From: a virus
Length of the DNA: 64,000 nucleotides
Direction: 5' to 3' (one strand)
IMG/VR virus record: IMGVR_UViG_3300023184_000039
Coordinates: 64,001-128,000 of that record
In this document: in pieces, positions 47,647-63,631 of the stretch
Layout of the letters: every line of letters begins with the position of its first letter
Position numbering within the stretch: position 1 is the first letter of the stretch
Translations under genes and position numbers: made by a program
Notes under the pieces: model-generated
Told to the model about the DNA's origin: nothing
The model's input: the letters and a program-made list of their open reading frames with translations, nothing else
Databases searched by the model: none

Positions 47647-47676
47647 TGTCTCATTAGCGTCCCACCCCACTAAGAT
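47647..47676 (+). promoter_or_regulatory. Tandem-heptamer promoter copy 1
   Basis: TGTCTCATTAGCGTCCCA-N6-TAAGAT. Confidence 0.8.
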
Positions 47677-47721
47677 TGCGTTGCCGCAAGGCACACGACA
47701 TCTACGAAGGGGGTGAACAAA

Positions 47722-47934
47722 ATGGAAACTTGGGAAAAGGAAGGTTTTGCTTCAGAAGAGGCGTACTTGGAAGAGGCATATGCGAGTATAGAAGCCGAGC
47801 AAGAAGCGGAGTTCTGCATGAGCTTCGTCAACGGTGGGGGTCATTCCTCGGATTGGCGAGAGGCTTATCGCCAGTCGCAGATGACCGAGGAGGAGTTCTT
47901 CTTGTACCTCCACGCTCAATTCGGCGAAGTGTGA
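47722..47934 (+). CDS. Small acidic hypothetical protein
   Basis: Downstream of promoter copy 1; GGGGGTG SD. Confidence 0.6.
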   Translation: METWEKEGFASEEAYLEEAYASIEAEQEAEFCMSFVNGGGHSSDWREAYRQSQMTEEEFFLYLHAQFGEV

Positions 47935-47973
47935 CATAACGGGATGCTGGCAGATGGTTGCTAGTATCTCGTT

Positions 47974-48219
47974 ATGAACATATCCACCGAAGAACCAACC
48001 GTCGCCGACCTTCTTGTCGAGCATTATTACACCCTTTCGACTACCGGGGCCAATGCAATCGCTGCAATCTGGGGTGATTTAGCTGATGGCAACTTCAGTG
48101 ACAACCTTGTCGAGTGGGGTATGACTGAGTATCAGTTCATTGCCGCTGTAAATGATTTAGCACTCAACATTGCACATTCTGGGATGCTGTTCCGGGAACG
48201 AGCGGACAAACGTATCTAG
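47974..48219 (+). CDS. Hypothetical protein (leaderless)
   Basis: TG-C-TAGTAT-N6-ATG. Confidence 0.55.
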   Translation: MNISTEEPTVADLLVEHYYTLSTTGANAIAAIWGDLADGNFSDNLVEWGMTEYQFIAAVNDLALNIAHSGMLFRERADKRI

Positions 48220-48536
48220 CCGCGTATTCGGCTGTTACATTCGAGACAAAACTCGGCCCACGGGTAAAATCTACGCATATTCGCTGGATGCTGACAATAC
48301 AGAAGCTCACGCGCGCGAGCGTTCAGGATGTCCCGTATAAACGAAGACACGGTGATATTGAGCTTCTCTGCGGCCTTGCGCCACTCCTCTTTTTCTTCTG
48401 ACGTTACGCGTATCATCACCTGGTTGTCAGCCGGGACATTCCCGGTGTTTGTTTCAGCTACGGGCTTTACGGCCATATCTGCTGTTTTCATACTTTTTGC
48501 CACGTCACTCATTGCTTGCTTTAGTGATTTGTCCAT
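48216..48536 (-). CDS. Ribbon-helix-helix-like DNA-binding protein
   Basis: QVMIRVTSEEKEEWRKAAEKLNITVSSFIRDIL; C-terminal Cys/His. Confidence 0.6.
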   Translation of the reverse strand: MDKSLKQAMSDVAKSMKTADMAVKPVAETNTGNVPADNQVMIRVTSEEKEEWRKAAEKLNITVSSFIRDILNARARELLYCQHPANMRRFYPWAEFCLECNSRIRG

Positions 48537-49140
48537 CTTCGACCATTTCTGCGTCAATTATTTCCTTATCCGATGAACCAGATAGTAGTTCCTTGAACAT
48601 ACCGTGAGGTAGAACTCCAGATGATGTCATCAACTCAATAAGTTTGCGGGCATCTTCTTCGGGACTAAAGCTGTTTACCGGGGCCGACATACCATCCTGG
48701 CCAGCCAATGTAGCTTTGATTACGTTCCCCGCGCCGCTTGATACATCCATCGAAACATTTACGTTCACATTATCCATACCCAGGAGCTTCGTACGTCTGT
48801 CCATTATCGAAAGAACTGCGGTAACCGCCTTTAGGTCTGGCTCTAATTGAAGTTCAGTCCCGTCAGCATCGGTCTGCTTTCGATTTTGCGTCATAGCCCA
48901 GATAGCGGACTGCAGCGCATCAAGCCGCTCAAGCTCAAGCCGCAGCACGTTTGAGTAATCGAGTTGCATTTCCTGGTTCATTTTCGTAAGTTGCCGCTGC
49001 ACGGCCTTGTTGACCGCAATGGTTGTCATATCAAAACGTTTGGCTATTTCTCGAACGCCAAGTCCGGCCTTCTTCATAGCGAATATGCGATAATCACGTT
49101 CGGCAAGGAACTCTCGATTAGTGGCCGGCTTGTTGCTCAT
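48505..49140 (-). CDS. HTH protein, terminase small subunit-like
   Basis: N-terminal HTH (G-x-x-x-REIA-x-x-F); LELERLD-x-L-x-x-x-x-W...D-x-x-AV...I-x-x-RR-x-KLLG-x-D typical of actinophage TerS-like proteins. Confidence 0.6.
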   Translation of the reverse strand: MSNKPATNREFLAERDYRIFAMKKAGLGVREIAKRFDMTTIAVNKAVQRQLTKMNQEMQLDYSNVLRLELERLDALQSAIWAMTQNRKQTDADGTELQLEPDLKAVTAVLSIMDRRTKLLGMDNVNVNVSMDVSSGAGNVIKATLAGQDGMSAPVNSFSPEEDARKLIELMTSSGVLPHGMFKELLSGSSDKEIIDAEMVEDGQITKASNE

Positions 49141-49279
49141 TTTCTGTCAGACCTAATCATCAACACGGCCCAAATCAGCGTGAGAAATAATACGAAATAG
49201 AACATCTTGCTCACGCTCTCGCCTCCGAGTGGTTATGAATCAATACATAAATCATAACACCATTGAGATAGCGAGATAA

Positions 49280-49465
49280 CTAGACGATTTCTTCCCAATC
49301 GTCAATGACCCAATCAAGATAGGTCTGGCCTTGGGCAATCTGCTCTTGTAAAGCGTTCATTACATCTAAGTCAGAGACCTGGTCCGCCATATCAACCTCG
49401 TCTTTGGCCTGAACACGAACGGTCACGGACGTAGTCATTGTGAGAAATACCTCGTAAGTTTTCAT
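49280..49465 (-). CDS. Small hypothetical protein
   Basis: MKTYEVFLT...; GAGG SD within the upstream gene. Confidence 0.5.
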   Translation of the reverse strand: MKTYEVFLTMTTSVTVRVQAKDEVDMADQVSDLDVMNALQEQIAQGQTYLDWVIDDWEEIV

Positions 49466-49466
49466 A

Positions 49467-49610
49467 CTAGATTTCCTCTGCGATTTCGGATACAATTCCC
49501 ATACGCTTTTTGTAAGCCTCATCGGCCAACTCTTGTGCGTGGTAGTAAGCCTCTGCGGCTTCCCAGCCAATGAGATTGTCGCTAAATACTGGTTCTGTGT
49601 GGTTGTTCAT
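49467..49610 (-). CDS. Small leaderless hypothetical protein
   Basis: ATG exactly 6 nt after the -10 of promoter copy 2. Confidence 0.55.
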   Translation of the reverse strand: MNNHTEPVFSDNLIGWEAAEAYYHAQELADEAYKKRMGIVSEIAEEI

Positions 49611-49616
49611 ACTCAA

Positions 49617-49646
49617 ATCATACTCACTTGGGACGCTAGTGAGACA
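49617..49646 (-). promoter_or_regulatory. Tandem-heptamer promoter copy 2
   Basis: TGTCTCACTAGCGTCCCA-N6-TATGAT-N6-ATG. Confidence 0.85.
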
Positions 49647-49647
49647 G

Positions 49648-51429
49648 TTAGTCGTACTCCAGATACTCCAGCACCGTGAAAGCGAAACGTTCAGACTTAT
49701 CGGCCCGACGCAGTAAGGTCGGCCACTTGCGCTGGTCTCTAGCTCCCCTGAAATGTCGAACTTCATAGGTAAATGGAGCTCCTGTTGGGACCGGAGACAT
49801 CGAGATGCCAAACTCCGGCCAACGTGACCACACGCTGCTTCCAAATGGCCGTAAATCGCGTGTTGCCATCGTAGTCCCGAGTGGTGCGTGATGCTCAAAC
49901 CACATTGCGCACTTATACGTGACACGCAGCGAGTCTAAATATCGAGCTATCTCGACAGCAATGGCATCAGACGTGCGGCCGCCTGGGTCTATGTATGCCT
50001 TGTACAGCGGCCCCATACATATAAGTTCAGGCTGCACAATTTCTATCTGTTTTTCGAGCAGCGCGCGGTCAGCGGCTTTGAGTAAATCAAGGCCGCCTGG
50101 CTTTGCATACAAACGTGCAAGATTATGCGGCTGCTTTCCGGTCCGCGCCCCATCAGAAATCATCTTTTTTGACATACGTCGAATGATTGTCTCTGGGTTC
50201 TCCAAGTCAACCGTAAGCGTTACAACGGGACGAATGGGTTGATACGTGAACGGGTGTATTCCAGCTCCGGCCGTGATGGCTATTTGCCGCATAAGCATAG
50301 TTTTACCAACGCCTTCGGCCGCCACAACAATCACACGTTCTCCGCGCTCAAGAAGACCGGGTATAACCCAGTCGTAATCATCATTTTCTGCTTCTTTTAC
50401 AAAATCTTCCCAAACAACTAAGCGGCCCGCATCGAGCGGCTCTTCAGCTGTAGCTGAGTTCGTAATCATCGACATTTTTGCTATTTTTTGCTGCGACGTC
50501 AGGTCCTCTCGACTAAATACTTCTCCAAGTCGAGTGAGTGCGCGGGTGAACGCATCTTCTGTTTCCACAACCACTTGTTCCATCGGGACTTCATCAGTAT
50601 CTACGTGCAGCGTAAAATCGAGCGCAAGCGGCACAAGCTCTTCCATCTTCCCGCCCGCCGCTAAGTGGTCAGAAATATCCTTATTTTTGGGACAAATCCA
50701 AACAGCTACGTCGCAGCCCGCTTCTGTTAGCTGCGTGAATACGTTAAGTGCGTGTTGCTTTCCAGCATCATCATTATCAGCAATGATGTCAATCGTTCCA
50801 CCACCAGTAAGCGTCTCTGTATGAATATCAAGCCATTTTCCGGGACCAGCGCCGCCCGGCATCGTCGTAGCCACAATCCCCATAGATATTAATGTTTCTG
50901 CGTCTTTTTCTCCTTCGACAACAAAGATGCTTGACCCGGCGGCAACAGCGGCCGCGACTGCGGGTAAGTTATACAACACTTTTGGCGTATCTCCGAGTGA
51001 ATACTCCCAACCGCCACTTCCATCGGGACGGCGTTGACGAAACGTCTTGCGGCCATCCTGGTCAACGTATCGAATCTTCTCAAACAGCAACTCTCCGAGC
51101 GCATCCTGGTACTCGTACGTAGCAACTTTTGTCAGTTTCTGTTCTTTTTTCACCGGCACCGCGGGCGTGTTTACGGGCTGCATACTCACCTGACGTGATA
51201 AATCATCCGGGAACAAATCATTCATCTTTATTCCTAATGTTTCACATATTTTGTCCGCACTGCAGCCGCCTGTGCCGCGAAAACAATGGAAAACGATGTG
51301 TTCGTCCCGTATCCCAACAGCCAATGATGGACTGTTGTCATCAAGGCGGCACGGGCAACGCGCTTGCCATTGGCCGTTACTTCCAGTTACGCCGTCAAGC
51401 CGCGCAAGTACGTCGTCAATGTGAATCAA
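49648..51429 (-). CDS. Primase-helicase (Zn finger + TOPRIM + RecA-like AAA_25)
   Basis: CPC...D-x-x-PSL...HCF; VVEGEKDA; ADNDDAG; Walker A AAEGVGKT; FGSS-x-W. Confidence 0.88.
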   Translation of the reverse strand: MIHIDDVLARLDGVTGSNGQWQARCPCRLDDNSPSLAVGIRDEHIVFHCFRGTGGCSADKICETLGIKMNDLFPDDLSRQVSMQPVNTPAVPVKKEQKLTKVATYEYQDALGELLFEKIRYVDQDGRKTFRQRRPDGSGGWEYSLGDTPKVLYNLPAVAAAVAAGSSIFVVEGEKDAETLISMGIVATTMPGGAGPGKWLDIHTETLTGGGTIDIIADNDDAGKQHALNVFTQLTEAGCDVAVWICPKNKDISDHLAAGGKMEELVPLALDFTLHVDTDEVPMEQVVVETEDAFTRALTRLGEVFSREDLTSQQKIAKMSMITNSATAEEPLDAGRLVVWEDFVKEAENDDYDWVIPGLLERGERVIVVAAEGVGKTMLMRQIAITAGAGIHPFTYQPIRPVVTLTVDLENPETIIRRMSKKMISDGARTGKQPHNLARLYAKPGGLDLLKAADRALLEKQIEIVQPELICMGPLYKAYIDPGGRTSDAIAVEIARYLDSLRVTYKCAMWFEHHAPLGTTMATRDLRPFGSSVWSRWPEFGISMSPVPTGAPFTYEVRHFRGARDQRKWPTLLRRADKSERFAFTVLEYLEYD

Positions 51430-51764
51430 CGGGACTCTGGCTTTCCACTCATATCACGACGATAACTCGTACGCACACCAGGAAGCAAATCACGCTCAAA
51501 TGTTTGTATTTTGATGCCGCGTTCTCTCCGGGTATAAAAACGCTCACGTTCATCTTGCCCGCCCCAAACTCCAAGCGGCTCGTGTACGAGTGAATATTCT
51601 AAACAATTACTTACAACAGAACATCCAGAACAAATCAATTTAGCGGCAGTAACTTTTTGTCGGTCTTCTCGTATTTTCACATTTTGTGGAAAGAACAACG
51701 TTGTGTCTTGTCCTTTACAGGCCGCCTGGTTCATAAACGAAACATTAACTTCAGTAATAATCAT
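51426..51764 (-). CDS. whiB: WhiB-family transcription factor
   Basis: AAC...FFP...AK-x-IC-x-x-C-x-V-x-x-x-CL...GVWGG...ER. Confidence 0.9.
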   Translation of the reverse strand: MIITEVNVSFMNQAACKGQDTTLFFPQNVKIREDRQKVTAAKLICSGCSVVSNCLEYSLVHEPLGVWGGQDERERFYTRRERGIKIQTFERDLLPGVRTSYRRDMSGKPESR

Positions 51765-51778
51765 TTCCCCCTCTTTCG

Positions 51779-52183
51779 TTACTGTCCCGTCATTTTACTC
51801 ACATCCCCACGAGAAAGAAAAATCGTTACTACTCTCTGCCCAGTTGGTTCATTGATTGTTACATCAATTGCATCCAAAGGCAACCCCAATCGTTTAGATA
51901 TTTCAGCTTTTACTTTTGCTTGAGCTTCCAGCGACGCAATGATGTCTTCGTCAATATTTTCTAAATCATTTGCGGGTGCCGGGTTGAGGGCTAACAAATC
52001 TCGACGTTTATCGACAACTCGCAAACACCACGCGCACGCAAGCTTGGGCGCTGTGGACTTTCTCTCTCGAATCTCAACGTGCCCGCACTCGAGCGTGTGT
52101 TGATACTTTACTGCCCCCCACGTACCAACGCGGCTAATCATCGTGATTTTGCGGCGCGGGGCTTTCCTGTGTTCTGTGGTCAT
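51779..52183 (-). CDS. Hypothetical protein (LECGH...CAWC)
   Basis: Leaderless TAATGT-N6-ATG; Zn-ribbon-like residues. Confidence 0.55.
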   Translation of the reverse strand: MTTEHRKAPRRKITMISRVGTWGAVKYQHTLECGHVEIRERKSTAPKLACAWCLRVVDKRRDLLALNPAPANDLENIDEDIIASLEAQAKVKAEISKRLGLPLDAIDVTINEPTGQRVVTIFLSRGDVSKMTGQ

Positions 52184-52195
52184 ACTTAGACATTA

Positions 52196-52233
52196 GTCCC
52201 GTTGGTGGAGGTGAAAATCCACACCAACGGGAC
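52196..52233 (-). terminator. Hairpin downstream of ssb
   Basis: GTCCCGTTGGTG...CACCAACGGGAC 12-bp stem; no clear U-tract. Confidence 0.5.
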
Positions 52234-52262
52234 CTTTGTCTTCTAGTTCTTACGCTAGATGG

Positions 52263-52718
52263 TTAGAAAGGTTCTGATTCAGTCTCAACTCCGACGCCAG
52301 CCATTGCTCGTTGACGTTGTGGTTGTGCTGCTTGTTTTGGTGCCGCTGCACCATCGGTATTTGATGCTTTACGTCGCTCGATGGACTCGATGCTACGGGT
52401 CAAGATGGCAATATCTTCGGCTACAAGCTCAGTCACGCTGCGCTTGTTTCCTTCTTTGTCATCGTATGAACGTTGTTCCAAACGTCCGTAAACCATTACG
52501 CCAATGCCCTTTTCGGCAACGCGCGCAAAGTTTTCTGCTACCCAACGCCAGGCTACAACGTTAATGAACGAAACTTTTTCTTGTTTCGCATTTTTGTCGT
52601 CGTACCAGACGTAGTTGACCGCAACCGAAAAGGTTGCTTTTGGTGTCCCGCTTGGTAAGAATACCAATTCCGGGTCGGCTGTAATATTGCCGATGATTAC
52701 TGTCGGTGACAGATTCAT
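52263..52718 (-). CDS. ssb: Single-stranded DNA-binding protein
   Basis: GN-x-T-x-DPEL-x-F-x-PSG...F-x-VAVN...W...AEN...KG...GRL-x-QR; acidic EPF tail; AAGGAG SD. Confidence 0.93.
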   Translation of the reverse strand: MNLSPTVIIGNITADPELVFLPSGTPKATFSVAVNYVWYDDKNAKQEKVSFINVVAWRWVAENFARVAEKGIGVMVYGRLEQRSYDDKEGNKRSVTELVAEDIAILTRSIESIERRKASNTDGAAAPKQAAQPQRQRAMAGVGVETESEPF

Positions 52719-52790
52719 TTATTTCTCCTTGTCTCGTGTGTTTCTTGCTAGGCTATTACCATACCACCACCTAGTGACAAAGGACAACAC

Positions 52791-53193: not shown

Positions 53194-53757
53194 TTGAAAA
53201 CAATCACAGGCTGGGTTATATCTATTCTTATATTGAGCATCGGGTTGGCAATTCCGGTCCAAGCTCAGAAGGTTGATGCGCCCTCTGTGTCAGTCGTTCC
53301 ACTAGTTGTTCCGGAACGGGTTGTTGAGACCGTTCCTAAAGCCATTGTGTTCAGTCACGGCGATATCTCTTGGTTGCCTGAATTAGCAATACAAGCGGGT
53401 TGGAAGCCAAAACAGATTGCTCGGCTTGGTCAAATCATCTTACGTGAGTCGGGCGGTTGCCCTAATCGTAAGGGCGGCGACATTGTGGACAAGAACTGTA
53501 ATGTCACGGGTATATCTGACCTTTCCCATCGCTCTGACTCAGGTCTACTCCAAATCAACGGGGTAAATTACGATGTTTCTCGCAATAAGTGGGCAACAGT
53601 TTGTAGAGCAGGCATCGCCTGTTCACAAGAACCACTTCTTGATGCCCTCACAAACCTTCGTGCCGGATACGAGATGTTCAAAGTGTCCGGTTGGGGGCCT
53701 TGGGACCCGTGCCAATGGGGTCCAGAGTATGCCGCTCGTTGTAAGGCTGGCAACTAA
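53194..53757 (+). CDS. Secreted lytic transglycosylase (SLT/lysozyme-like)
   Basis: Signal peptide; ILRESG (catalytic E), DSGLLQIN, L-x-D-x-x-x-N, GW-x-PW; AGGAG SD. Confidence 0.8.
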   Translation: MKTITGWVISILILSIGLAIPVQAQKVDAPSVSVVPLVVPERVVETVPKAIVFSHGDISWLPELAIQAGWKPKQIARLGQIILRESGGCPNRKGGDIVDKNCNVTGISDLSHRSDSGLLQINGVNYDVSRNKWATVCRAGIACSQEPLLDALTNLRAGYEMFKVSGWGPWDPCQWGPEYAARCKAGN

Positions 53758-54248
53758 CTCTTGTCTAGTGACCTGTCTGAGGCAGGGTCACGTACTTCCC
53801 ACAAACCCTTCTTGACCTTCCTGAAGTAAGGACTGTCCTGAACGAACTTCAGGGTTGTTTGGTAAGAGAACCCACCAATCTCCACTAGTTCTTCCGTTGT
53901 CTTTTGGACAAAGATATTCTGTTTTGCCCAAGACACAAGTTTGTCGTACTTGTCTACTCGTTTCTCTTTGGGGGCGATAACTACTTCGTCAATGTCCTCG
54001 CCGCAATACTCCTGGACGAGTGAAATGATTGTCCTCTCGCTAACTGAATAACTCCCAAGAAGTCGGGCCGCAGAACCCTTGCCGTCCCAACCTTTGAGGA
54101 TATAAAGTCCACGTGTACGGTCACTAATTGACTGAGCGACATCACCTGGAACGGCAAACTTGTCTCCGTATTCTTGTGCAGCGTCGCGCCAAAGTGCCTG
54201 GTGTTCTGCCTCTATTTCATTGTCTGTGATTGTTCTGGTAAGTGCCAT
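53754..54248 (-). CDS. Hypothetical protein (leaderless), possible C-terminal winged helix
   Basis: ATG 6 nt after the -10 of promoter copy 3. Confidence 0.6.
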   Translation of the reverse strand: MALTRTITDNEIEAEHQALWRDAAQEYGDKFAVPGDVAQSISDRTRGLYILKGWDGKGSAARLLGSYSVSERTIISLVQEYCGEDIDEVVIAPKEKRVDKYDKLVSWAKQNIFVQKTTEELVEIGGFSYQTTLKFVQDSPYFRKVKKGLWEVRDPASDRSLDKS

Positions 54249-54939: not shown

Positions 54940-55166
54940 TAAAGTTCCTCTCCGTCCTCGTCTGTGTAGATAAGACGGTGAAGACTACCAAAAATCTCTT
55001 GTGCTTCGGCATCAACCACTTCCATAATGTCATCAAGTGACGGGTCATTGTTCCCACCCTTGACTGCAAGTGTCTCGCAGATATCGGCCACATCAAACAT
55101 AAAGAGTTTGCTGACATTTATGTATTTAGGAAGTGTTCCGTCCGATAGGTGTTCCGTTGTCGTCAT
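54939..55166 (-). CDS. Small acidic hypothetical protein
   Basis: Coupled in the operon. Confidence 0.55.
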   Translation of the reverse strand: MTTTEHLSDGTLPKYINVSKLFMFDVADICETLAVKGGNNDPSLDDIMEVVDAEAQEIFGSLHRLIYTDEDGEEL

Positions 55167-55441
55167 TAGCCAACCAACTCATCGGAATAGAACTCTGACA
55201 ATGGGTTCTCGGCAACATGCTTGCTTGCCGAGAGTGGCGAATTGTTTGCAAAATAATTGGCAGCAAATCCGTCATTGTAGTAAACGTGTTGAACTGGCTT
55301 CATTGACATATCAACGATTAGTAGTTGCCCACCAACCTGTATGTATGCCTGTCCACCGTTGAAGTGGTACAGCCTGTTCTCACGGGCTGCTTGGTCTATT
55401 TCTTTTGCCCACTCGCTGTGGGTTACTGGTGCTGTTTTCAT
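55166..55441 (-). CDS. Hypothetical protein
   Basis: AAGGAG SD downstream of promoter copy 4; start at ATG 55441. Confidence 0.55.
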   Translation of the reverse strand: MKTAPVTHSEWAKEIDQAARENRLYHFNGGQAYIQVGGQLLIVDMSMKPVQHVYYNDGFAANYFANNSPLSASKHVAENPLSEFYSDELVG

Positions 55442-55500: not shown

Positions 55501-55737
55501 TCATAATGCGAAGGTCACCCCATCTGTGTCAATTCCGAATAGAACACCACCACCGTTGCCCTCGTAATCCTGTGAAGGATAAAGTCGGACACCGTTACTC
55601 AACACCATTACAAGTGGTGTTCCGTTTCCGTATCTGACTTCCCAACCCTCTGCCTCAATTTCGGCAGGTGTCATTGGGCGAAGCTCGGTAATGGTCATAC
55701 CCTCAATCGCTACTAAGTTTTCTGTTGTGTTTGTCAT
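55501..55737 (-). CDS. Small leaderless hypothetical protein
   Basis: ATG 6 nt after the -10 of copy 5; PSQDYEGNGGG motif. Confidence 0.6.
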   Translation of the reverse strand: MTNTTENLVAIEGMTITELRPMTPAEIEAEGWEVRYGNGTPLVMVLSNGVRLYPSQDYEGNGGGVLFGIDTDGVTFAL

Positions 55738-55802: not shown

Positions 55803-55832
55803 TGTCTCATCTGCGTCCCAAGTTGTTATAGT
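55803..55832 (+). promoter_or_regulatory. Tandem-heptamer promoter copy 6 (divergent from copy 5)
   Basis: TGTCTCATCTGCGTCCCA-N6-TATAGT. Confidence 0.85.
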
Positions 55833-55862
55833 TGTATCACCTACTAGACAAAGGAGCCCACT

Positions 55863-56321
55863 ATGGGTTTAGACCAATACCTTTACGCAAAGCAATACAC
55901 ATCTGAAAGCGATTACGCACGACCTGACAAGTTTGCTGTTCTCAAAGATGTAGTTGGCAGCGACATCAAGTTTCTTGTCAAAGAAAGTCCAAGCATCTCT
56001 GTTGAGATGAAAGTCGGTCAATGGCGCAAAGCCAACGCAATTCACGCATACTTCGTGGACAACTGCCAAAACGGCGAGGACGATTGCCGTGAGAGTTATG
56101 TGGACAGAGAGAAACTTGTAGAACTGCTTGACTTGTGTAAGCAAGTTATTGCTGACCACTCAAAGGCAGATGAATTGTTGTCCACTCAATCAGGTTTCTT
56201 TTTTGGCTCAACGGAATACGGCGAGTGGTACTTCCAAGACTTAGAGGACACCGTGAGTATCTTGGAGAATTGCCTCACAATGGAAGACACTTGGGAGTTC
56301 TACTACCAATCATCTTGGTAG
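55863..56321 (+). CDS. Conserved phage hypothetical protein
   Basis: MGLD-x-YL...WRKAN-x-IH-x-x-FV...GFFFGS...YY-x-SSW; AAGGAG SD. Confidence 0.75.
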   Translation: MGLDQYLYAKQYTSESDYARPDKFAVLKDVVGSDIKFLVKESPSISVEMKVGQWRKANAIHAYFVDNCQNGEDDCRESYVDREKLVELLDLCKQVIADHSKADELLSTQSGFFFGSTEYGEWYFQDLEDTVSILENCLTMEDTWEFYYQSSW

Positions 56322-56332: not shown

Positions 56333-56527
56333 ATGACCAAACCAATGACCAAACAGGAACGTGTTCTCCACGATATTCTCCACGACATTCGACTATGGGC
56401 ATATTATGGAAAACAAGCTGATGCTGGTGCTGTTGAGCGTAGAAAAATCCTGCGGCATATAGAGAAGTTAGCCAAGTCTGCCCTAGATGTCTCACCTGCG
56501 TCCCAGCGAGGTAAAGTGAAAGTATGA
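56333..56527 (+). CDS. Small hypothetical protein
   Basis: MTKPMTKQERV...; reads through promoter copy 7. Confidence 0.45.
   Translation: MTKPMTKQERVLHDILHDIRLWAYYGKQADAGAVERRKILRHIEKLAKSALDVSPASQRGKVKV
56488..56517 (+). promoter_or_regulatory. Tandem-heptamer promoter copy 7
   Basis: TGTCTCACCTGCGTCCCA-N6-TAAAGT-N6-ATG. Confidence 0.85.
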
Positions 56528-57147
56528 ACCCGACAGAATTACACCCCGACTTACAGGCGCACTCATACGAACACCCGGAATTGGGTTTCGCTATCGCGCA
56601 CCCACTCTTACACACGATTGCTTGGGCCGATGCCGCGACTATCAACAAGAATTATCTACAAAAAGTTGATGCTGTTGCGAGTGCGCTAGAGGAACAACGT
56701 TGGAGTTCGTACATCTATCTCCACGAAAAGCCATATCGGGTTGACGCCTTCATTGAGGTCGCTGATGAGTTGGGCAACAAGGATTATTGGGAACTACTCG
56801 CAAGTGTTTGGACTGGCTCTGAAAACATTTGGCAAAACATTGACAGTTGGGTATCTCTTTGGAACTCGACCCGGCCTAACCGTGAACTGGCGATGACAGA
56901 GAACGACAGAGATGAACTGGCCGCATACCCGGACACGTTCACCGTTTATCGTGGCGCACTATTTGACGAGAACGAGCAAGGTATGTCTTGGACTAGCGAC
57001 TACGACAAGGCTAAATGGTTCTCCACACGCTTCGCAGGAGAGGGGGATGTACCTGTAGTCGTGGAACGTGTCATCAACAAGAGCGAAGTCCTTGCCTACC
57101 TAAGTGGGAGAGGCGAGAGCGAAGTCGTATTGGACTTGTCTCTCTAG
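56524..57147 (+). CDS. Putative R-S-E type ADP-ribosyltransferase-fold protein
   Basis: TVYRG...MSWT-x-D-x-x-x-A-x-x-F...GESEVV. Confidence 0.6.
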   Translation: MNPTELHPDLQAHSYEHPELGFAIAHPLLHTIAWADAATINKNYLQKVDAVASALEEQRWSSYIYLHEKPYRVDAFIEVADELGNKDYWELLASVWTGSENIWQNIDSWVSLWNSTRPNRELAMTENDRDELAAYPDTFTVYRGALFDENEQGMSWTSDYDKAKWFSTRFAGEGDVPVVVERVINKSEVLAYLSGRGESEVVLDLSL

Positions 57148-57433: not shown

Positions 57434-57434
57434 T

Positions 57435-57755
57435 ATGGAATACGTCAAGGACGAATTAGAACTCTGGGAAGATAAATACAAGCCCGTACAAAACCACATC
57501 AACGGAGATGCGTCGTGGGACGGAGTAATGTATGAAACATACGGCGCAGAATACGATTATGTGACGAAAGTAGCGAGTTTGCAGCCACATAAAGTATGGA
57601 CTTGGGTCGATGGTGACAATGGAACGTACATCATCAACGGTTGGCATATGGTCAATCGCATTGGATACTTTATTACGCAAGTTCCGTGTGAGTTTGATGA
57701 CCAAATTGAGGTTCGCGTGGACACCTATGATGATTCGGGTATCTATTTAGTCTGA
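57435..57755 (+). CDS. Conserved phage hypothetical protein
   Basis: YETYG-x-E...VWT-x-x-D...G-x-H-x-VNRIGY-x-IT. Confidence 0.65.
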   Translation: MEYVKDELELWEDKYKPVQNHINGDASWDGVMYETYGAEYDYVTKVASLQPHKVWTWVDGDNGTYIINGWHMVNRIGYFITQVPCEFDDQIEVRVDTYDDSGIYLV

Positions 57756-58003
57756 TTCCTACGTCTCTGACGTTGTCTGAGAGTAGTCGCGCCCCATATG
57801 CCGTGAAGCTTCGGGTATGAATTAGCGAACTCGCCGCACTCAATGAGAACCGGACAAGTTTTGCATATTTCGACGGCCTTGCGGGTGCCGGTATTAGCTT
57901 CGCCACGTTCCGGGAACCACCAGCTCGTTGGGAGCCCTCTACAATCGCCATCAAATCGAGGAACCGGTATTTCATCTTCGAGTATCTCGATATCGTGAAA
58001 CAT
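57743..58003 (-). CDS. whiB: WhiB-family transcription factor (second copy)
   Basis: C...WFP...IC-x-x-CPV-x-x-EC...GIWG-x-T-x-x-x-QR. Confidence 0.85.
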   Translation of the reverse strand: MFHDIEILEDEIPVPRFDGDCRGLPTSWWFPERGEANTGTRKAVEICKTCPVLIECGEFANSYPKLHGIWGATTLRQRQRRRNQTK

Positions 58004-58031: not shown

Positions 58032-59888
58032 TTACAACCCTATTCTTTTCATAAACGCAGCCGCTACATCTTGCCCGGAAGCTCCTTCGATAGCTTCTGT
58101 TACAATCGAGAGCTTACGCTGCAGTAAATTGTAAATATCTTCATCAATCGAGTTCTCCATCAGCGCGTACGTGGCCGTAACTGACCCGGTTTGCCCAATT
58201 CGATGCAATCGACTAAATGTTTGCTGCACGTCGGCGGGCGTCCAGGGCAGTTCGACAAACAAAATGTCTTGCGCCGCTGTCAATGTGTGCCCGGTCTTCG
58301 CCGCTTGTATTGAAAGAACGATTACCGGAGCTTCTTCGACGCTTGATTCCTGGAATATCTTCTTATTTTCTTCGATTTGCTCGACAGTCATACCGCCTTG
58401 TATCTTCAGGCCGCCGAACCGCTGCGCTAAAGCATCAACAATGTCCCGATGGTGAGCCGCAACCACAACTTTCTTCCCGGCGTCTACACGTTCCTCAATC
58501 CACTCGATTACAGCCGGCATTTTGGCATATGCGGCCAGTCGACGCAGCACGCTTATCTTCGCAAGCTGAGTTGGCACGTCTAGGCCGCTGTTATCCCGCA
58601 AAAACGTAGAAACATCGTCTTCTGCGGCTTGATATTCCTTCTTTCCGGCTGTCGAGCCCTCAAATGTAACAATCGAGTGCATCACCGGGGGCAATTCTGT
58701 TAAAACTTGCGCCTTTGTACGCCGGATATAACACGTCGAGCGCAATAAATCGTTCAATTCATCAAGATTTGAGTTACCTTCGAGGTGCCATTGGCCCCAT
58801 TTGTCCTGGAACGCAGCGCAATAGCGGCGATAAAAGCCCCAGCGGCCGCCAAACTTGTTTAATTGGCCAAGAAGTTCAAGCTGCGGCGCATATTCTGCGG
58901 GTTTTGACGTTACCGGAGTGCCAGTTAGGCACAATATCGGGACTTCCGCACCAGAAGCGCGGGTCATTTTGAGTGCACTCTTTGTACGTTGAGCCGGAAA
59001 GCTCTTCAGATAGTGAGATTCATCAAAAATGTATGCATTTAGCCCGGTCAGCTGCCGCTCCCAGGCCGTAATGTTGGAATAACCGACAATAACTACGTCA
59101 AAGCTGCCGCGTTCCGGGAAGTTTTTTCGATTTTTTACAACTTTTACGCGTCTACTGGGAGCCCACTTTGCATATTCAGCGGCCCAGTTGATGGTTAAGT
59201 TGGCGGGGCACGTCACAACCGCTGGAAAACATTCGATTTTTTGAGAAATTACCTCGAGCGCAACGATGGCCTGGATGGTTTTACCCAATCCCATCTCATC
59301 AGCTATGAATGTTCTTCGCGCGCGAGCCGCATAATTGACTCCGGCCCGCTGATATGGCATCAGTCCCGTGAATCCTTCGATTATTTGCTCTGTTCCGGTA
59401 GCTCGACTTGCGTCTCGAAGCTCATTTAGTCGATTATCGACGTTTTTTGCAAGCTCCCGGAGCTCAACTGGGACGTGAATTTGGAATGTTTCGGCCCATT
59501 TTATGCACTGCTGCAGCGAAGTTACTGGGCTGCGCCAAGCTTTTGACTTGGAATGCCACGTTATTCCCGGTATTTGTTTAACGCTGCGCACTTTCACCGG
59601 GTCATACCCGAAAGAAAGGTAAATAAACTCGCCAGACTGCGTCAGTCCCGACATATTGGACATCGGCCGCTCGGGTAACGTCAGAATTAGGACATCCGAC
59701 TCGATTACGAAGCTATTTTTTTGGGCGAATACTCGAGCTTGTTCAAGACTTGATACTGGAACACTCCATAAATGGGCTACTTTATCCCACTTGCTACCCG
59801 GTATCGCTTTTATCTCGGCTACTTGCTTGACATCATACGGGAAGTCAAACACCAATACATTGTTCATCAGTATTAGGCGAGAAGTCAC
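58032..59888 (-). CDS. SNF2-family helicase with two N-terminal HARP-like domains (SMARCAL1-like)
   Basis: ADEMGLGKT, DESH, LTGTP, RRTK, Q-x-x-x-R-x-HRIGQ; duplicated F-x-YD...K-x-IPG-x-x-W...W-x-x-P. Confidence 0.88.
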   Translation of the reverse strand: MTSRLILMNNVLVFDFPYDVKQVAEIKAIPGSKWDKVAHLWSVPVSSLEQARVFAQKNSFVIESDVLILTLPERPMSNMSGLTQSGEFIYLSFGYDPVKVRSVKQIPGITWHSKSKAWRSPVTSLQQCIKWAETFQIHVPVELRELAKNVDNRLNELRDASRATGTEQIIEGFTGLMPYQRAGVNYAARARRTFIADEMGLGKTIQAIVALEVISQKIECFPAVVTCPANLTINWAAEYAKWAPSRRVKVVKNRKNFPERGSFDVVIVGYSNITAWERQLTGLNAYIFDESHYLKSFPAQRTKSALKMTRASGAEVPILCLTGTPVTSKPAEYAPQLELLGQLNKFGGRWGFYRRYCAAFQDKWGQWHLEGNSNLDELNDLLRSTCYIRRTKAQVLTELPPVMHSIVTFEGSTAGKKEYQAAEDDVSTFLRDNSGLDVPTQLAKISVLRRLAAYAKMPAVIEWIEERVDAGKKVVVAAHHRDIVDALAQRFGGLKIQGGMTVEQIEENKKIFQESSVEEAPVIVLSIQAAKTGHTLTAAQDILFVELPWTPADVQQTFSRLHRIGQTGSVTATYALMENSIDEDIYNLLQRKLSIVTEAIEGASGQDVAAAFMKRIGL

Positions 59889-59910
59889 CTACATAATGTA
59901 GCATTGTCCA

Positions 59911-60144: not shown

Positions 60145-60165
60145 TAAAGTGCTAGTATTGTTCTC

Positions 60166-60221: not shown

Positions 60222-60222
60222 A

Positions 60223-60528
60223 CTATTCGTAATAACCGTCATTGTATCTATCATCGTTGATTGCATCAAGAAAGTCATTCTGCTTTGGTGGAAGTGGAAC
60301 AACCTCTTGTAAATAGAGAAATGCAAAATACAACAATGCGGCAAGAAACAATAGGAACATTCGAGTTAGTCCGATGTATCCAAGCAACATAAATATCGGC
60401 CTGAACATAAATCGTGGAACGATTGCAAATATCACAACCGACGAGATGACCGGGTGCTCTTTCATTCGCACAAGTGTGTTGGCCGCATAATCCCAACTCT
60501 TATTTTTGATGATATTCAGTTTGCTCAC
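60223..60528 (-). CDS. Membrane protein
   Basis: Long hydrophobic stretch. Confidence 0.5.
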   Translation of the reverse strand: MSKLNIIKNKSWDYAANTLVRMKEHPVISSVVIFAIVPRFMFRPIFMLLGYIGLTRMFLLFLAALLYFAFLYLQEVVPLPPKQNDFLDAINDDRYNDGYYE

Positions 60529-60532
60529 ACCT

Positions 60533-60802
60533 TTACTCTACAGACTCTAGGAAGTCATAGAGGTGAAGTGTGTCCAATACTTGCTCAATGAGTGCATAGT
60601 TCACACCGTGAAATGTAATTCCCTCTGGGAGTTGCATCTCATAACCCTCATCACCAAACTCGGCGTAGTGGTCAAGTGCCATCTCGGCAACTTTAACAAG
60701 TGAGATTGGCAGCGATGGATAATGATTGTAAATGAGATGGTCTACGAGGAGTTGGTGGCGATATTCCACCAACCCCTCGCTTGACAAGATTGAGTCAGTC
60801 AT
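60533..60802 (-). CDS. Hypothetical protein
   Basis: TAATG-coupled to the KTSC gene; HL-x-x-NHYP motif. Confidence 0.55.
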   Translation of the reverse strand: MTDSILSSEGLVEYRHQLLVDHLIYNHYPSLPISLVKVAEMALDHYAEFGDEGYEMQLPEGITFHGVNYALIEQVLDTLHLYDFLESVE

Positions 60803-61032
60803 TACTTGGACAACCTTGTGTATTCGTACGACTGGCTGATGACATTCGAGTGAAGTGCTGAACCGATTGACTCGGCTCCGATGACTGCCTTGACCGTTGC
60901 GAGCGAGACACCTGAATAGCAATAGGTGACACCACTTGTGAACGTTACGAACAACAATTCGTTCGCATACTGAAGGTCACGAACAGACGATGACTCGCCT
61001 GCGAGTGAGAAGGTGATTACTGGAGTTGCCAC
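60802..61032 (-). CDS. Stand-alone KTSC-domain protein
   Basis: SSSVRDLQY...L-x-V-x-F-x-SG-x-x-Y-x-Y-x-GV...AESIG; GTG start after GAGG (alternative leaderless GTG at 61065). Confidence 0.8.
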   Translation of the reverse strand: MATPVITFSLAGESSSVRDLQYANELLFVTFTSGVTYCYSGVSLATVKAVIGAESIGSALHSNVISQSYEYTRLSK

Positions 61033-61071
61033 AATGTCCTCTTTCCGTAGTTGGTTATTTGCCACAAAGAC

Positions 61072-61101
61072 ATCATAGCCAAGTGGGACGCTTATGAGAC
61101 A
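61072..61101 (-). promoter_or_regulatory. Tandem-heptamer promoter copy 9
   Basis: TGTCTCATAAGCGTCCCA-N6-TATGAT. Confidence 0.85.
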
Positions 61102-61120
61102 ATTCGACCCTATGGCCACT

Positions 61121-61150
61121 TGTCTCACGAGCGTCCCAAGTGGGTATTAT
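61121..61150 (+). promoter_or_regulatory. Tandem-heptamer promoter copy 10 (divergent from copy 9)
   Basis: TGTCTCACGAGCGTCCCA-N6-TATTAT-N6-ATG. Confidence 0.85.
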
Positions 61151-61156
61151 GTACCT

Positions 61157-61405
61157 ATGACAACACAAATAAACGACAACGAGGTAATCATCAACACTCG
61201 CTCCTGTATGCATTGTGGGCAGACTGGCGAACTTGTTGTTCGCTACGAGTCCGTAGAGATGCGACAGAGTGGTATGTCTGTCCAAGAAGCTTTTTGGTAT
61301 TTGGCAGCACCACAACGAGAGCAAATTATCTCGGGAACTCATCCTCATTGTTGGGAGCAGATGTTTGGGCAGGACTGCGATGACGATGACGATGACGATG
61401 AATAA
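61157..61405 (+). CDS. Small leaderless Zn-binding-like phage protein
   Basis: C-x-x-CG...QEAF-x-x-L...RE-x-IISG-x-H-x-x-CW. Confidence 0.65.
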   Translation: MTTQINDNEVIINTRSCMHCGQTGELVVRYESVEMRQSGMSVQEAFWYLAAPQREQIISGTHPHCWEQMFGQDCDDDDDDDE

Positions 61406-61406
61406 T

Positions 61407-61436
61407 TGTCTCACGAGCGTCCCAACTGGGTACACT
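61407..61436 (+). promoter_or_regulatory. Tandem-heptamer promoter copy 11
   Basis: TGTCTCACGAGCGTCCCA-N6-TACACT. Confidence 0.85.
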
Positions 61437-61465
61437 TACTTCACCTACTACGAAACGAGGAACTG

Positions 61466-61819
61466 ATGGCTACAACGACAATGCAAGATTGCTGGAGTGA
61501 TGTAGAATATGCACTCAATGATGCGAAACTCATCGCATTCGATGGCTGCCACAAGATTTATCTTGCGATGGATGACATTGAGGCGAAGTGGTTTGTGGAT
61601 AATTACAACGGTAAAGGTTGTGATGACCGAACCTTTCTCGGCTCGCCCGATGAGATGCTCGCAACTATTCGCACTTGGTGGGATGAGTCTTGTGGACTTC
61701 GCTTCATCAATGCCGTATCGCACAACGAGCAAGACCCCAATGCTGGCTTCGTCACTCTCATCCCACAAGGTGCAGAGGATGAAGTAGAGGTCGATGAGGA
61801 TGAGGATGACGATGAGTAA
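61466..61819 (+). CDS. Conserved phage hypothetical protein
   Basis: AFDGCHKIY...W-x-x-SC-x-LRFI; GAGG SD. Confidence 0.65.
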   Translation: MATTTMQDCWSDVEYALNDAKLIAFDGCHKIYLAMDDIEAKWFVDNYNGKGCDDRTFLGSPDEMLATIRTWWDESCGLRFINAVSHNEQDPNAGFVTLIPQGAEDEVEVDEDEDDDE

Positions 61820-61962
61820 TCCAATAGAAGTGGACCTAGATACAGGACTAACAACGTGTTGCCTCGCCTACACAACTTATATGGATGATGGCAACGATGG
61901 TTGGATTGAGTGTTGCAAGGCTTGCTATGCAGAGATATCTGGCTGGGCCGGAGTTGCCCACT

Positions 61963-61992
61963 AGTCTCACAAGCGTCCCATTGGGATACGAT
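61963..61992 (+). promoter_or_regulatory. Tandem-heptamer promoter copy 12
   Basis: AGTCTCACAAGCGTCCCA-N6-TACGAT. Confidence 0.8.
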
Positions 61993-62023
61993 TACTTCAC
62001 CTACTAAACAGAAACGAGCAATT

Positions 62024-62425
62024 ATGAAACTTACTGGAACTATCTCAACGAACTGCCAATGCGGCCACCTTGATGGCGATTGTGACGGGTATTGCTACGA
62101 GTGGAGTCTCGAAGACTTCGCCAATGTCACGGAGTCATTGTTTGACGGGGAGACATACAATAATTCCTACCCGTTCAAGGTTGAGGGAATCGGATTGTGG
62201 AATCGTACCGTTGGTGGAGTCGTGTTGGTCGATGACTCCAATGGATTGGTAAGAGCGATGTCCGTAAACGGAGACTTCACACTTCGTTGGGAGTTTGACG
62301 AGGACACAAAAACTCTTGGTGCTCTATTGAGTCACCACGATTGCCCGACAGGTAGTTGGGTAACAGTCACCACAATGAGCCGTGACGAGTATATGATTGA
62401 GACTGGAGATTACACCTATGCCTAA
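62024..62425 (+). CDS. Hypothetical protein
   Basis: Start at ATG 62024 after promoter copy 12; SHHD-x-PTG motif. Confidence 0.6.
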   Translation: MKLTGTISTNCQCGHLDGDCDGYCYEWSLEDFANVTESLFDGETYNNSYPFKVEGIGLWNRTVGGVVLVDDSNGLVRAMSVNGDFTLRWEFDEDTKTLGALLSHHDCPTGSWVTVTTMSRDEYMIETGDYTYA

Positions 62426-62639
62426 TGAATCACTCACTCGCCTACAAGAGAGTCTTATGCGCACCATAAATACTCTCTCGGCACTTGTATCAGACATTGA
62501 GCAAGGTCAATACACTCAAGACAAGGCGGCCTTTGATTACGACTGTATGATGAACAACGATGGCTTAGACTTTATGTCATCGTTAGAGTCGTATGCGTTT
62601 GATGCGACCGTACCCGACAAACCGGCTGGAGAGCAATAA
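62418..62639 (+). CDS. Hypothetical protein
   Basis: GGAG SD, overlap-coupled. Confidence 0.5.
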   Translation: MPNESLTRLQESLMRTINTLSALVSDIEQGQYTQDKAAFDYDCMMNNDGLDFMSSLESYAFDATVPDKPAGEQ

Positions 62640-62932
62640 TGCGCGAAACTGATAGAAAATTACTACCGGTCCAACTCACGTACGATGAGATTGAGACTAC
62701 ACTCATCGCTCTTATCCTTCGACAAGAGGAGATTATGAGTATTCCGTTTGATGAGCGAACAGATACGACGCTCTACGAGCTTGACCATATCTTTGAGGTG
62801 AGCGAACACCTAAATGACGTGCAGCACCGATACGAGGAACTTGGAATAAGCGAGATTGAGCAAGTGGTGTCGCAAATTGACAGAGCGCAGCGACCTAAGA
62901 AAAATTGGTTGTCTCGGCTACTCAAACAATGA
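62639..62932 (+). CDS. Hypothetical protein
   Basis: TAATG coupling. Confidence 0.5.
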   Translation: MRETDRKLLPVQLTYDEIETTLIALILRQEEIMSIPFDERTDTTLYELDHIFEVSEHLNDVQHRYEELGISEIEQVVSQIDRAQRPKKNWLSRLLKQ

Positions 62933-63126
62933 CATCGGCTTACACCTGCCGGGTATGTAATCATCAGCTTGACCCAGCATCATCCAATACAGTTCGCAAG
63001 GTAACAGCCTGGTTGCGAGGCTCGAGCAAGACGATATATCGCATTACCGATGAACACTACGAGTATGTCCACGACTTCTGCACAGACCATAACAAGGTGG
63101 CCCAAAACTCGCTATTTGATGACTAG
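62929..63126 (+). CDS. Small Zn-ribbon-like protein
   Basis: C-x-x-C...H-x-x-C; ATGA coupling. Confidence 0.45.
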   Translation: MTSAYTCRVCNHQLDPASSNTVRKVTAWLRGSSKTIYRITDEHYEYVHDFCTDHNKVAQNSLFDD

Positions 63127-63383
63127 TAAAGTGTTTTTGGCAACACTTTTACTAGATGCTTGAGTTCGCTCTCAAGACCTGCTCCCTCTACATTATTCAG
63201 TAGGTCAATGAGTTGGTCAAGGAATGATGCCGCGTAACTAGGTACGGGTGTTTTTGCGACATTGGCAAAAAAACCTGTAAGGACTTCGTCAATGTCTGAA
63301 ACAAGGCCGGCACCTTCACAATTCGTGATGATGTCTCGTATGTCCTCAAGGTATTTCTTGTAGTCAATTTTGGTTGTTGTCAT
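63123..63383 (-). CDS. Small leaderless protein with an internal duplication
   Basis: D-x-x-x-N-x-EGAGL-x-S x2; ATG 6 nt after the -10 of copy 13. Confidence 0.6.
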   Translation of the reverse strand: MTTTKIDYKKYLEDIRDIITNCEGAGLVSDIDEVLTGFFANVAKTPVPSYAASFLDQLIDLLNNVEGAGLESELKHLVKVLPKTLY

Positions 63384-63385
63384 AA

Positions 63386-63631
63386 CTACATCTTACCTAT
63401 TTGGGACGCTTGTGAGACAGGTCGCTTATGCTGCTGTCTCTTGGACAGGGCAACCTCTAAGTTGGCTCGTGTATGTGCCGTGTCGCACCTGTAGCACCTA
63501 ATATCGGCATTGTAGGCATTGAGTCGTGTATCGCAATCGTGGCAGACTCGAACTATCTTTGCTCGCTCAATCACAATTTTGTTCTTTTTTATCTGAACGT
63601 ACTCAGCTGATGTTCGCTGTGGAATACTCAT
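63386..63631 (-). CDS. Small Zn-ribbon-like protein (resembles 54715-54939)
   Basis: RVC-x2-C-x-T-x-L-x-x-YN-x4-C-x2-C. Confidence 0.5.
   Translation of the reverse strand: MSIPQRTSAEYVQIKKNKIVIERAKIVRVCHDCDTRLNAYNADIRCYRCDTAHTRANLEVALSKRQQHKRPVSQASQIGKM
63390..63419 (-). promoter_or_regulatory. Tandem-heptamer promoter copy 13
   Basis: TGTCTCACAAGCGTCCCA-N6-TAAGAT-N6-ATG. Confidence 0.85.

Follow-up and report, generated by a model that had tools for sequence, protein, structure and literature searches.

An 18-bp element that is followed after six nucleotides by a TAnnnT hexamer (TGTCTCAnnnGCGTCCCA-N6-TAnnnT) recurs through one arm of an uncultured lake phage, IMG/VR record IMGVR_UViG_3300023184_000039. 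The window, that is, the whole stretch of DNA analysed, is 64,000 nucleotides long and corresponds to bases 64001-128000 of this 140,645-bp record. It was found that the composite motif occurs 24 times in the phage genome and that the same composite promoter stands once, directly in front of recBCD, in genomes of one actinobacterial genus from lakes and a river. The 18-mer sites are very probably a class of promoters. I propose, with a probability of about 0.45, that these early hybrid promoters are read by the host RNA polymerase via a sequence-specific adaptor, which would probably be a host protein dedicated to recBCD.

A sequence-only reading of the window had listed 13 copies of the motif. 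All of them are present at the listed coordinates and strands with 0-1 mismatch, each has exactly 6 nt between the 18-mer and TAnnnT, and the part of the window described as empty (1-47 kb) indeed has zero copies in positions 1-47646. Dinucleotide-preserving shuffles of the window gave a mean of 1.45 matches at ≤3 mismatches, and 13 was reached in 0/100 of them. The same reading proposed a search of the full genome, which returned 24 copies at 0-1 mismatch, more than the 13 of the window, all confined to positions 111,647-135,616 of the record. There are no intermediate matches in the genome; the next best have 3-4 mismatches, lack the hexamer and resemble noise. The hexamer follows after exactly 6 nt in 24/24 genome copies. 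The sites are dispersed and asymmetric and lie in both orientations, with four back-to-back promoter pairs in the whole genome. The idea of a promoter class defining a regulon of small early-type genes is supported by 24 copies of fixed geometry. Since the ends of the record overlap by 127 bp, the assembly is circular. No INPHARED phage record matched the region or the 2,693-aa protein of the phage.

The information profile of the 24 sites is flat outside positions -37..-7 relative to the predicted start. It peaks at -35..-30 (GTCTCA), at -26..-19 (GCGTCCCA) and at T-12, A-11 and T-7; almost no information is carried by position -28, the hexamer core and most of the 6-nt spacer. T-12, A-11 and T-7 are present in 24/24 copies, while the core positions carry 0.18-0.73 bits. 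This position-by-position pattern reflects selection on individual positions, not recent copying. The information summed over -37..-7 is ~37 bits, as against ~13.5 bits needed to select 24 sites in the genome. G-14 is found in 17/24 copies, and the seventh nucleotide past the hexamer is A in 19/24. The promoter is an actinobacterial sigma-A -10 element with the -35 hexamer replaced by a bipartite 18-bp element (-36..-30 and -26..-19); the usual -35 hexamer of such promoters is TTGnnn, 16-18 bp upstream, and GTCTCA at -35..-30 matches TTGACA at only three of six positions. Neither a consensus sigma-70 promoter scan nor an intrinsic terminator scan rose above shuffled sequence, and terminator-like sites are not enriched. 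The promoter scan misses the 18-mer sites because GTCTCA occupies the -35 position. The two GTC triplets of the element lie one helical turn apart. The earlier description of paired heptamers (TGTCTCA and CGTCCCA) 11 bp apart is literally right; they are identical at 5/7 positions, and the differences between the two half-sites are the same in every one of the 24 phage copies as well as in the host copy.

The predicted transcription start lies 7 nt past the hexamer, and the mRNA would be leaderless or have a short A/C-rich leader opening with (C)ACCUACUA. In actinobacterial sigma-A promoters, the start is on a purine 6-8 nt past the hexamer, and leaderless mRNAs are common. Ten of the 24 copies are leaderless, with an ATG or GTG 6-7 nt past the hexamer. 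Twelve have a 21-26-nt leader that opens with (C)ACCTACTA and contains the Shine-Dalgarno sequence AGGAG, and the other two have longer leaders. Folding predicts no stable structure for the leaders. The genome has 13 copies of the leader word ACCTACTA, nine of them at +1/+2 of 18-mer promoters; the copies in the window lie at 55536-55543, 55839-55846, 61443-61450 and 61999-62006. A related phage (G001, described below) has the same leader word despite its differing promoter word. This word may serve as a conserved 5′ signal, either for translation or for protein binding.

Is the promoter also present in a bacterial genome? The pattern GTCTCAnnnGCGTCCCA-N6-TAnnnT was sought in one genome for each of 185,579 species. 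There were 12 exact matches, with ~69 expected for random sequence of uniform composition. Five of the 12 are orthologous and lie 53 nt before the ATG of recC, with recB and recD next. The five site-bearing genomes were assembled from metagenomes of lakes and a river and bear the labels Ilumatobacteraceae, Acidimicrobium sp. or Actinobacteria; they are 1.2-1.7 Mb in size with ~50% GC and belong to one GTDB genus of 58 species. The host site is TGTCTCAC[G/C/A]AGCGTCCCA-CTTCAC-TAA[A/G]GT, followed by a leader of ~17 nt (counted from the predicted start) that contains GGAGG and by the ATG of a 1,098-aa RecC. The host copies match the phage at the semi-conserved C-29 and A-27 and vary at -28, which is the free position of the phage motif. 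This block is the most conserved part of the recC intergenic region; its flanks diverge, and even the upstream neighbour differs. RecC identity is 93-97% among four of the site-bearing genomes and 70-72% to the fifth. The number of chance matches expected in the host genus is ~0.01. Because of this low expectation, the promoter geometry, the conservation and the shared habitat, the host match is taken as real.

The host genomes have no second site at ≤3 mismatches in the full pattern, and the generic pattern GTCnCA-N5-GTCnCA-N6-TAnnnT at ≤1 mismatch revealed no second site either. The proximal half plus the hexamer gave 7 matches in 58 genomes, as compared with 20 control matches. There is thus no host regulon, which excludes a global host response regulator. 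No similarity between phage and host was found beyond the promoter, and the ORFs (open reading frames) adjoining the host site have no phage homologues.

Other features were seen at the host recC locus. A second conserved promoter-like block, CACCCCGTGCG-TATCAT, lies upstream of the 18-mer (contig C134 of genome G002, ~1,625-1,660) and is common to genus members without the 18-mer. More distant family members have [G/T]CACACCC-N6/7-TAnnnT before recC. The upstream block may be an older operon promoter, perhaps a damage-responsive one, and the 18-mer site would be the proximal promoter of recBCD. Two host genomes have an extra family-less ORF (133-167 aa) between the ARPP-1 gene and recC, ending 5 nt before the 18-mer; thus, the neighbourhood of the host promoter is variable.

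The 13 promoters of the window, P1 to P13, and the neighbouring block without an 18-mer of its own are as follows.
P1, 47647..47676, plus strand: TAAGAT hexamer; a 30-nt leader to the GTG of a 73-aa ORF (47713-47934).
P2, 49617..49646, minus strand: leaderless, with the ATG at 49610; a 47-aa ORF, a 61-aa ORF and a 211-aa helix-turn-helix (HTH)-like protein (48505-49140).
P3, 54255..54284, minus strand: one mismatch (C at -36); leaderless; a 164-aa ORF (53754-54248).
P4, 55470..55499, minus strand: a 22-nt leader with CACCTACTA; a 91-aa ORF (55166-55441) and more small ORFs to 54251.
P5, 55744..55773, minus strand: leaderless; a 78-aa ORF (55501-55737); back-to-back with P6; has an orthologue in G001.
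P6, 55803..55832, plus strand: a 24-nt leader with CACCTACTA; a 152-aa ORF (55863-56321).
P7, 56488..56517, plus strand: leaderless; a 207-aa ORF (56524-57147; phrog_4776, function unknown).
P8, 57137..57166, plus strand: one mismatch; a 21-nt leader; overlaps the end of the 207-aa ORF; a 79-aa and a 106-aa ORF.
P9, 61072..61101, minus strand: leaderless with GTG; an 87-aa KTSC protein (60802-61065); back-to-back with P10. The rest of this leftward unit, on the same strand, consists of small ORFs, a SNF2 helicase (58032-59888) and WhiB3 (57743-58003).
P10, 61121..61150, plus strand: leaderless; an 82-aa ORF (61157-61405).
P11, 61407..61436, plus strand: a 23-nt leader with CACCTACTA; a 117-aa ORF (61466-61819).
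P12, 61963..61992, plus strand: A at -36; a 25-nt leader with CACCTACTA; a 133-aa ORF (62024-62425).
P13, 63390..63419, minus strand: leaderless; an 86-aa ORF (63123-63383).
Block without its own 18-mer, 49648..52718, minus strand: SSB (52263-52718), an 81-aa ORF, WhiB2 (51426-51764) and a Toprim/AAA_25 primase-helicase (49648-51429).
Putative promoter-like site TTGTCC-18-TATGGT, within 52719-52790, ahead of the SSB block: read by eye.

The six leaderless ATG starts reported earlier for the window were borne out, and the GTG of P9 brings the leaderless promoters to seven, all with the start codon 6 nt past the hexamer. The early arm is a patchwork of short units on both strands. The genes directly downstream encode mostly small proteins without a Pfam family and one KTSC protein. 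The arm also encodes SSB, the Toprim/AAA_25 primase-helicase, the SNF2 helicase, a MoxR-type ATPase, a Cro-type HTH_3 protein and an ion channel. Judging from gene order only, the P9 leftward genes from KTSC to WhiB3 would form one operon, and WhiB3 seems to be transcribed from an 18-mer promoter. The 18-mer class is one among several signal classes of the phage and belongs to the early-type arm. No integrase or resolvase was found in the phage, which is probably lytic.

Natural variants of the phage were used to assess the constraint on the motif. A sister strain is represented by a metagenome contig with 95.9% identity over 7.5 kb; in it, 0/144 constrained promoter positions and 1/96 free positions are changed, as compared with 3.9% overall. 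Purifying selection acts on the motif. Natural variants have lost one nucleotide of the P6 spacer at 55822 and gained one after 55826, which leaves the spacing at 6 nt. Variant contigs from four lake metagenomes (90-99% identity) are without 47644-47954 (P1 and its gene) and 61405-61792 (P11 and its gene). Promoter-plus-gene units are thus gained and lost at motif edges, and natural populations differ in the early arm at the promoter boundaries. Variant contigs also show other cassettes joined at motif copies.

How far does the word extend among related phages? No other IMG/VR contig bears the composite motif, and the bare 18-mer has 14 single matches only in IMG/VR, which is the chance level. 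Relatives were found via the SNF2 helicase, and they have the same promoter layout with different words. The closest relative, G001, is 93 kb in length and syntenic, with a SNF2 helicase 77% identical; it has 16 copies of TCGCCAAnAAG....TCyCk-N6-TAnnnT, followed by the same ACCTACTA leader or by a leaderless ATG. Its proximal block, TRTCCCk at -25..-19, resembles CGTCCCA of this phage, while its distal block is a different word at -38..-32 and is no repeat of the proximal one. At least 10 orthologous genes have the promoter in the same place, with TGTCTCA...GCGTCCCA here and TCGCCAAnAAG....TCyC in G001; the orthologous promoter of P2 likewise bears G001's own word. The gene order is shuffled at promoters between the two phages, and the promoters are kept. 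A more distant clade (~56% SNF2 identity) has a canonical gGTTG at -36..-32, a 17-bp spacer and private words directly ahead of the hexamer (CATAATAACCGA; CC.AATAACGGA; GACATAATAGGCT.; GGGGGCTG), with up to 25 copies per 22 kb. Together with the hexamer, the word patterns of the relatives are CATAATAACCGA-TAnnnT, AATAACGGA-TAnnnT and GACATAATAGGCTn-TAnnnT. The canonical gGTTG is lost only in this phage and G001, whose words cover -36..-32. That the TTG of the -35 element is lost exactly where the word covers it suggests that the word replaces the -35 element. Related phages have changed the upstream word in a concerted manner at orthologous promoters. None of the other phage words occurs at 30 recC loci, and the word found upstream of recC in a site-less host is not multi-copy in IMG/VR, the latter being a weak test because its pattern positions were guessed.

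From these data I infer that the sites act as promoters with the predicted starts, that they fire early and that they need an adaptor, which would come from the host. The sites would be the early-class promoters of a probably lytic phage of freshwater Acidimicrobiia. Sigma region 4 alone would be unable to read 15 bases over -36..-19, and most probably an adaptor or a class II activator sits between the DNA and sigma region 4 and takes over the recognition of the -35 position. The upstream element lies where an RNA-polymerase-associated activator or adaptor would act, in agreement with the placement proposed earlier. Because the spacing to the hexamer is fixed in the 24 phage copies and in the host copy, a stereospecific contact with RNA polymerase is indicated. 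It is likely that the reader is an activator or adaptor rather than a repressor. The proposal of a hijacked host factor gains support from the identical promoter before host recC: since the composite promoter is identical, has the same spacing and has its only host copy at recBCD, the reader is suggested to be a host protein, one that would normally serve recBCD alone. Whether the reader is host-encoded is, in my estimate, an even bet. The phage would have multiplied the recBCD promoter 24-fold, and its early genes could be fired by unmodified host machinery. As a side effect, 24 sites per phage genome copy could draw the reader away from recBCD. A host reader is preferred for three reasons: the host block is kept down to 70% RecC identity, while the phage word already differs at 77% SNF2 identity; early-arm promoters must work with what the cell contains at injection; and no DNA-binding module was found in the virion cargo.

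Several observations weigh against a host reader dedicated to recBCD. The site is patchy in the host genus, being absent at 82% and 74% RecC identity and present at 70% and 93-97%. No recognisable regulator was found near the host recBCD. The numbers of WYL and OmpR-type genes do not separate site-bearing from site-less genomes; two adjacent WYL genes are present in 9/10 host-genus genomes tested (none in G005), with or without the site. The G001 word was not found in 401 sampled host-family genomes, and the pattern of a phage copying its host is seen for one phage only. The predicted host assignment itself comes mainly from the promoter match. In addition, it would be odd for 24 strong early promoters of a replicating genome to rely on an activator that has a single target in the host.

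Alternatively, the reader may be supplied by the phage, either injected or made from an earlier promoter, and co-evolve with the private word, in which case the host copy would be a tripwire that raises RecBCD on infection. I consider this unlikely, but it explains several of the findings. The word is private, with no other IMG/VR contig bearing the composite motif, and the G001 word has changed in concert at orthologous promoters, as in the polymerase/promoter pairs of the T7 group. The host has one perfect copy and no degenerate regulon. That copy precedes an anti-phage nuclease and lies downstream of the putatively older promoter-like block common to relatives without the 18-mer. Two giant cargo polyproteins are packaged in the virion, which makes delivery of a protein with the DNA plausible. 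However, Pfam finds no DNA-binding module in the cargo, its lone WYL domain stands beside an exonuclease and a GNAT domain without an HTH, and no distinct earlier promoter class is defined from which the activator could be made first. The stability of the host block to 70% RecC identity, probably an older split than that between this phage and G001, also makes a host reader simpler. The WhiB proteins had been suggested as the reader; of the three WhiB genes of the phage, two lie inside the regulon region and WhiB3 seemingly lies behind such a promoter, so that they are more likely products of the regulon. No sigma region 4 (Sigma70_r4) or Trans_reg_C domain was found in the phage. The more specific scenario, in which the host has installed the private early promoter of the phage before recBCD as a tripwire and rapid concerted change of the word is the escape, seems slightly more doubtful still.

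Could the 18-mer be a repressor operator, for early shut-off or immunity, laid over promoters that need only the -10 element and resembling the sites of P1 C1 or mycobacteriophage L5 gp71? Many actinobacterial promoters function without a -35 element. In favour are the strong conservation of an asymmetric site scattered in both orientations, its information, which far exceeds what locating it requires and fits an extra binding protein, and the small Cro/CI-type HTH_3 protein that the regulon encodes. On the other hand, the 6-nt distance is invariant in 24/24 phage copies and the host copy, which indicates polymerase contact, whereas L5 or P1 sites are not locked to a -10 element. The -35 TTG is lost only where the word covers it, a sign that the word replaces the -35 element, and without an integrase or resolvase an immunity system is unlikely. 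The operator explanation is therefore improbable.

Returning to the preferred activator or adaptor at the polymerase, the sequence-only reading had proposed a tandem-binding activator; in its specific form this would be a tandem homodimer of the OmpR/PhoB/SARP type, such as an MtrA-, PhoP- or GlnR-like regulator of host or phage, bound to two YGTCYCA heptamers. The heptamers, 11 bp apart, match at 5/7, their footprint (-36..-19) is near the afs box at -40..-19 (PMC10936776), and the predicted hosts encode 4-9 OmpR-type regulators each. However, the proximal repeat lies 6 bp and not 8 bp from the hexamer, so that the contacted bases are 3-4 bp closer than in SARP sites, and a homodimer would be expected to select identical repeats, while the half-sites are unequal in the same way in every copy. 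This specific model, like that of a global response regulator, is not supported: the phage is without Trans_reg_C, G001 is without the distal heptamer, the half-sites are unequal and there is a single host site. Such a regulator is very improbable. The idea that the words are a coincidence or a by-product, being recombination junctions of mobile promoter cassettes that are homogenised per genome and read by host RNA polymerase only, accounts for units gained and lost exactly at motif edges and for the gene order shuffled at promoters relative to G001, and has a T4-type PeSL precedent (PMC2839356, PMC4122927), but it has the poorest prospects because homogenisation would not free -28, the spacer and the hexamer core while fixing 15 other positions, because only ~0.01 chance matches are expected for a host block that is conserved, has the same free position and has the correct promoter geometry, and because a preference of the host polymerase would put the word at other host promoters, none of which has it. 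The role as a cassette junction is itself real and compatible with all readings.

The following observations concern other products and signals of the phage. The WYL domain of the cargo lies at window positions 44987-45160 in the 2,693-aa ORF (38525-46606), with 27 bits in a six-frame scan and 21.9 bits in a protein scan, barely above the cut-off. The module stands between LGSR tags, with a GNAT-like stretch before it and an RNase_T/DnaQ-type exonuclease after it, and has no HTH; its make-up resembles a nuclease with a fused nucleic-acid sensor more than a transcription factor. Pfam scans of the two giant virion cargo polyproteins detected no HTH or other DNA-binding module. In the second of them, a 3,984-aa protease-headed polyprotein, an ArdC-N anti-restriction domain adjoins a polyvalent-protein zincin peptidase (window 8103-10802). 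The same polyprotein has five KTSC modules, and stand-alone KTSC genes follow 18-mer promoters. The Cro/CI-type HTH_3 protein of the regulon is 76 aa in length (genome 132,958-133,188). Small XRE-type ORFs homologous to it (38-46% identity) were found in 8/10 tested genomes of the predicted host genus, with a fragment at a contig end in a ninth and none in G178, whether or not the genome has the site. No host homologue of the phage 211-aa HTH-like protein was found in the genomes tested. Outside the window, ~13 co-oriented copies of another word, (TTATTAT)TGACGGTGGnGGAA, lie at gene junctions (genome 133,420-140,645 and 1-1,505). Within the junction word TGACGGTGGnGGAA there is a TGA stop as well as a Shine-Dalgarno-like GGnGGA run, 4-10 nt ahead of the next ATG, and the word may be a translational-coupling junction. 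One copy lies 15 nt upstream of the 18-mer promoter at 133,449.

If the reading of the host match holds, a single dedicated reader seems to serve the promoters of both phage and host. The host copy then provides a culture-independent host prediction for an abundant lake phage, and it points to one protein tying phage early transcription to the control of the cell's main linear-DNA nuclease. If the tripwire is true, a phage-delivered factor firing 24 phage promoters would also turn on RecBCD, the host DNA-end nuclease. Under both readings, phage copying host or host sensing phage, the reader protein could be sought with the 30-bp site as a ready bait.

The promoter may be compared with several known systems. 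In mycobacteria, PafBC inserts between sigma-A region 4 and the -26 element, with the consensus tGTCgg-N10-tAnnnT (PMC8635444). Like these PafBC (RecA-NDp) promoters, the phage promoter has a canonical sigma-A -10 element, no -35 element and a GTC-bearing element between -19 and -28; the predicted host is also actinobacterial, and its target gene is a DNA-repair gene. Unlike in PafBC promoters, the proximal GTC is at -24..-22 (-27..-25 in PafBC), 7 nt and not 10 nt from the hexamer, while the distal GTC is at -35..-33, 18 nt from the hexamer, within a second conserved block (-36..-30). Relative to the PafBC triplet, the proximal GTC is thus 3 bp closer to the hexamer and the distal GTC 8 bp farther. 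In addition, the element is 18 bp long and near-invariant, and it is used 24 times by the phage and once by the host. SiwR, a WYL activator that depends on the -26 region, controls a single adjacent operon (PMC10693628), which shows that such an activator can be dedicated to one operon. The SARP protein AfsR binds as a side-by-side dimer to two 11-bp repeats at -40..-19 (PMC10936776). Similarity to this SARP/OmpR class II arrangement lies in the neighbouring footprint, in the blocks one turn apart with uncontacted bases between them and in the replacement of a poor -35 element; the differences are the proximal block ending 6 bp and not 8 bp from the hexamer and the consistently unequal half-sites. 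The phage element falls into none of these three actinobacterial groups (PafBC, SiwR and AfsR).

Among phage systems, the T4 middle promoters (MotA box at -30, AsiA) likewise keep the host -10 element and have the -35 element replaced by a phage-class box read via an adaptor of sigma region 4. The sequence differs from the MotA box, however, and it is longer and far more conserved; the same promoter is present in a host genome, which points to a host reader. No homologue of MotA or AsiA was found, but none was looked for. The PeSL mobile promoter cassettes of T4-type phages (Arbiol et al. 2010, PMC2839356; Comeau et al. 2014, PMC4122927) are a precedent for early promoters that flank small unknown ORFs in a hyperplastic region, with promoter-plus-gene units gained, lost and shuffled. 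Unlike PeSL, the sites described here have no conserved stem-loop terminator half and nothing conserved upstream of -37; the hosts are actinobacterial, and the word of 15 invariant bases is private to one phage lineage. As in L5 stoperators and P1 C1 operators, one site is repeated, but these phage sites have a 6-nt spacing fixed in all copies and are not accompanied by an integrase or resolvase, and no cognate repressor was found. The T7 group (T7, T3 and SP6) has a near-invariant promoter of ~20 bp repeated ~17-24 times, with excess information and with words that change in concert among relatives, as found here, whereas T-12, A-11 and T-7 with a free core are the mark of sigma-A recognition and not of a single-subunit phage polymerase. 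Repeated phage-specific early promoters are of a known kind. Three points are not standard: the hybrid structure of the promoter, the concerted change of words among relatives and a host copy that stands only at recBCD. The hybrid promoter, with a host -10 element and 15 invariant upstream bases in place of the -35 element, extends the newly described adaptor activation of actinobacteria to a phage regulon.

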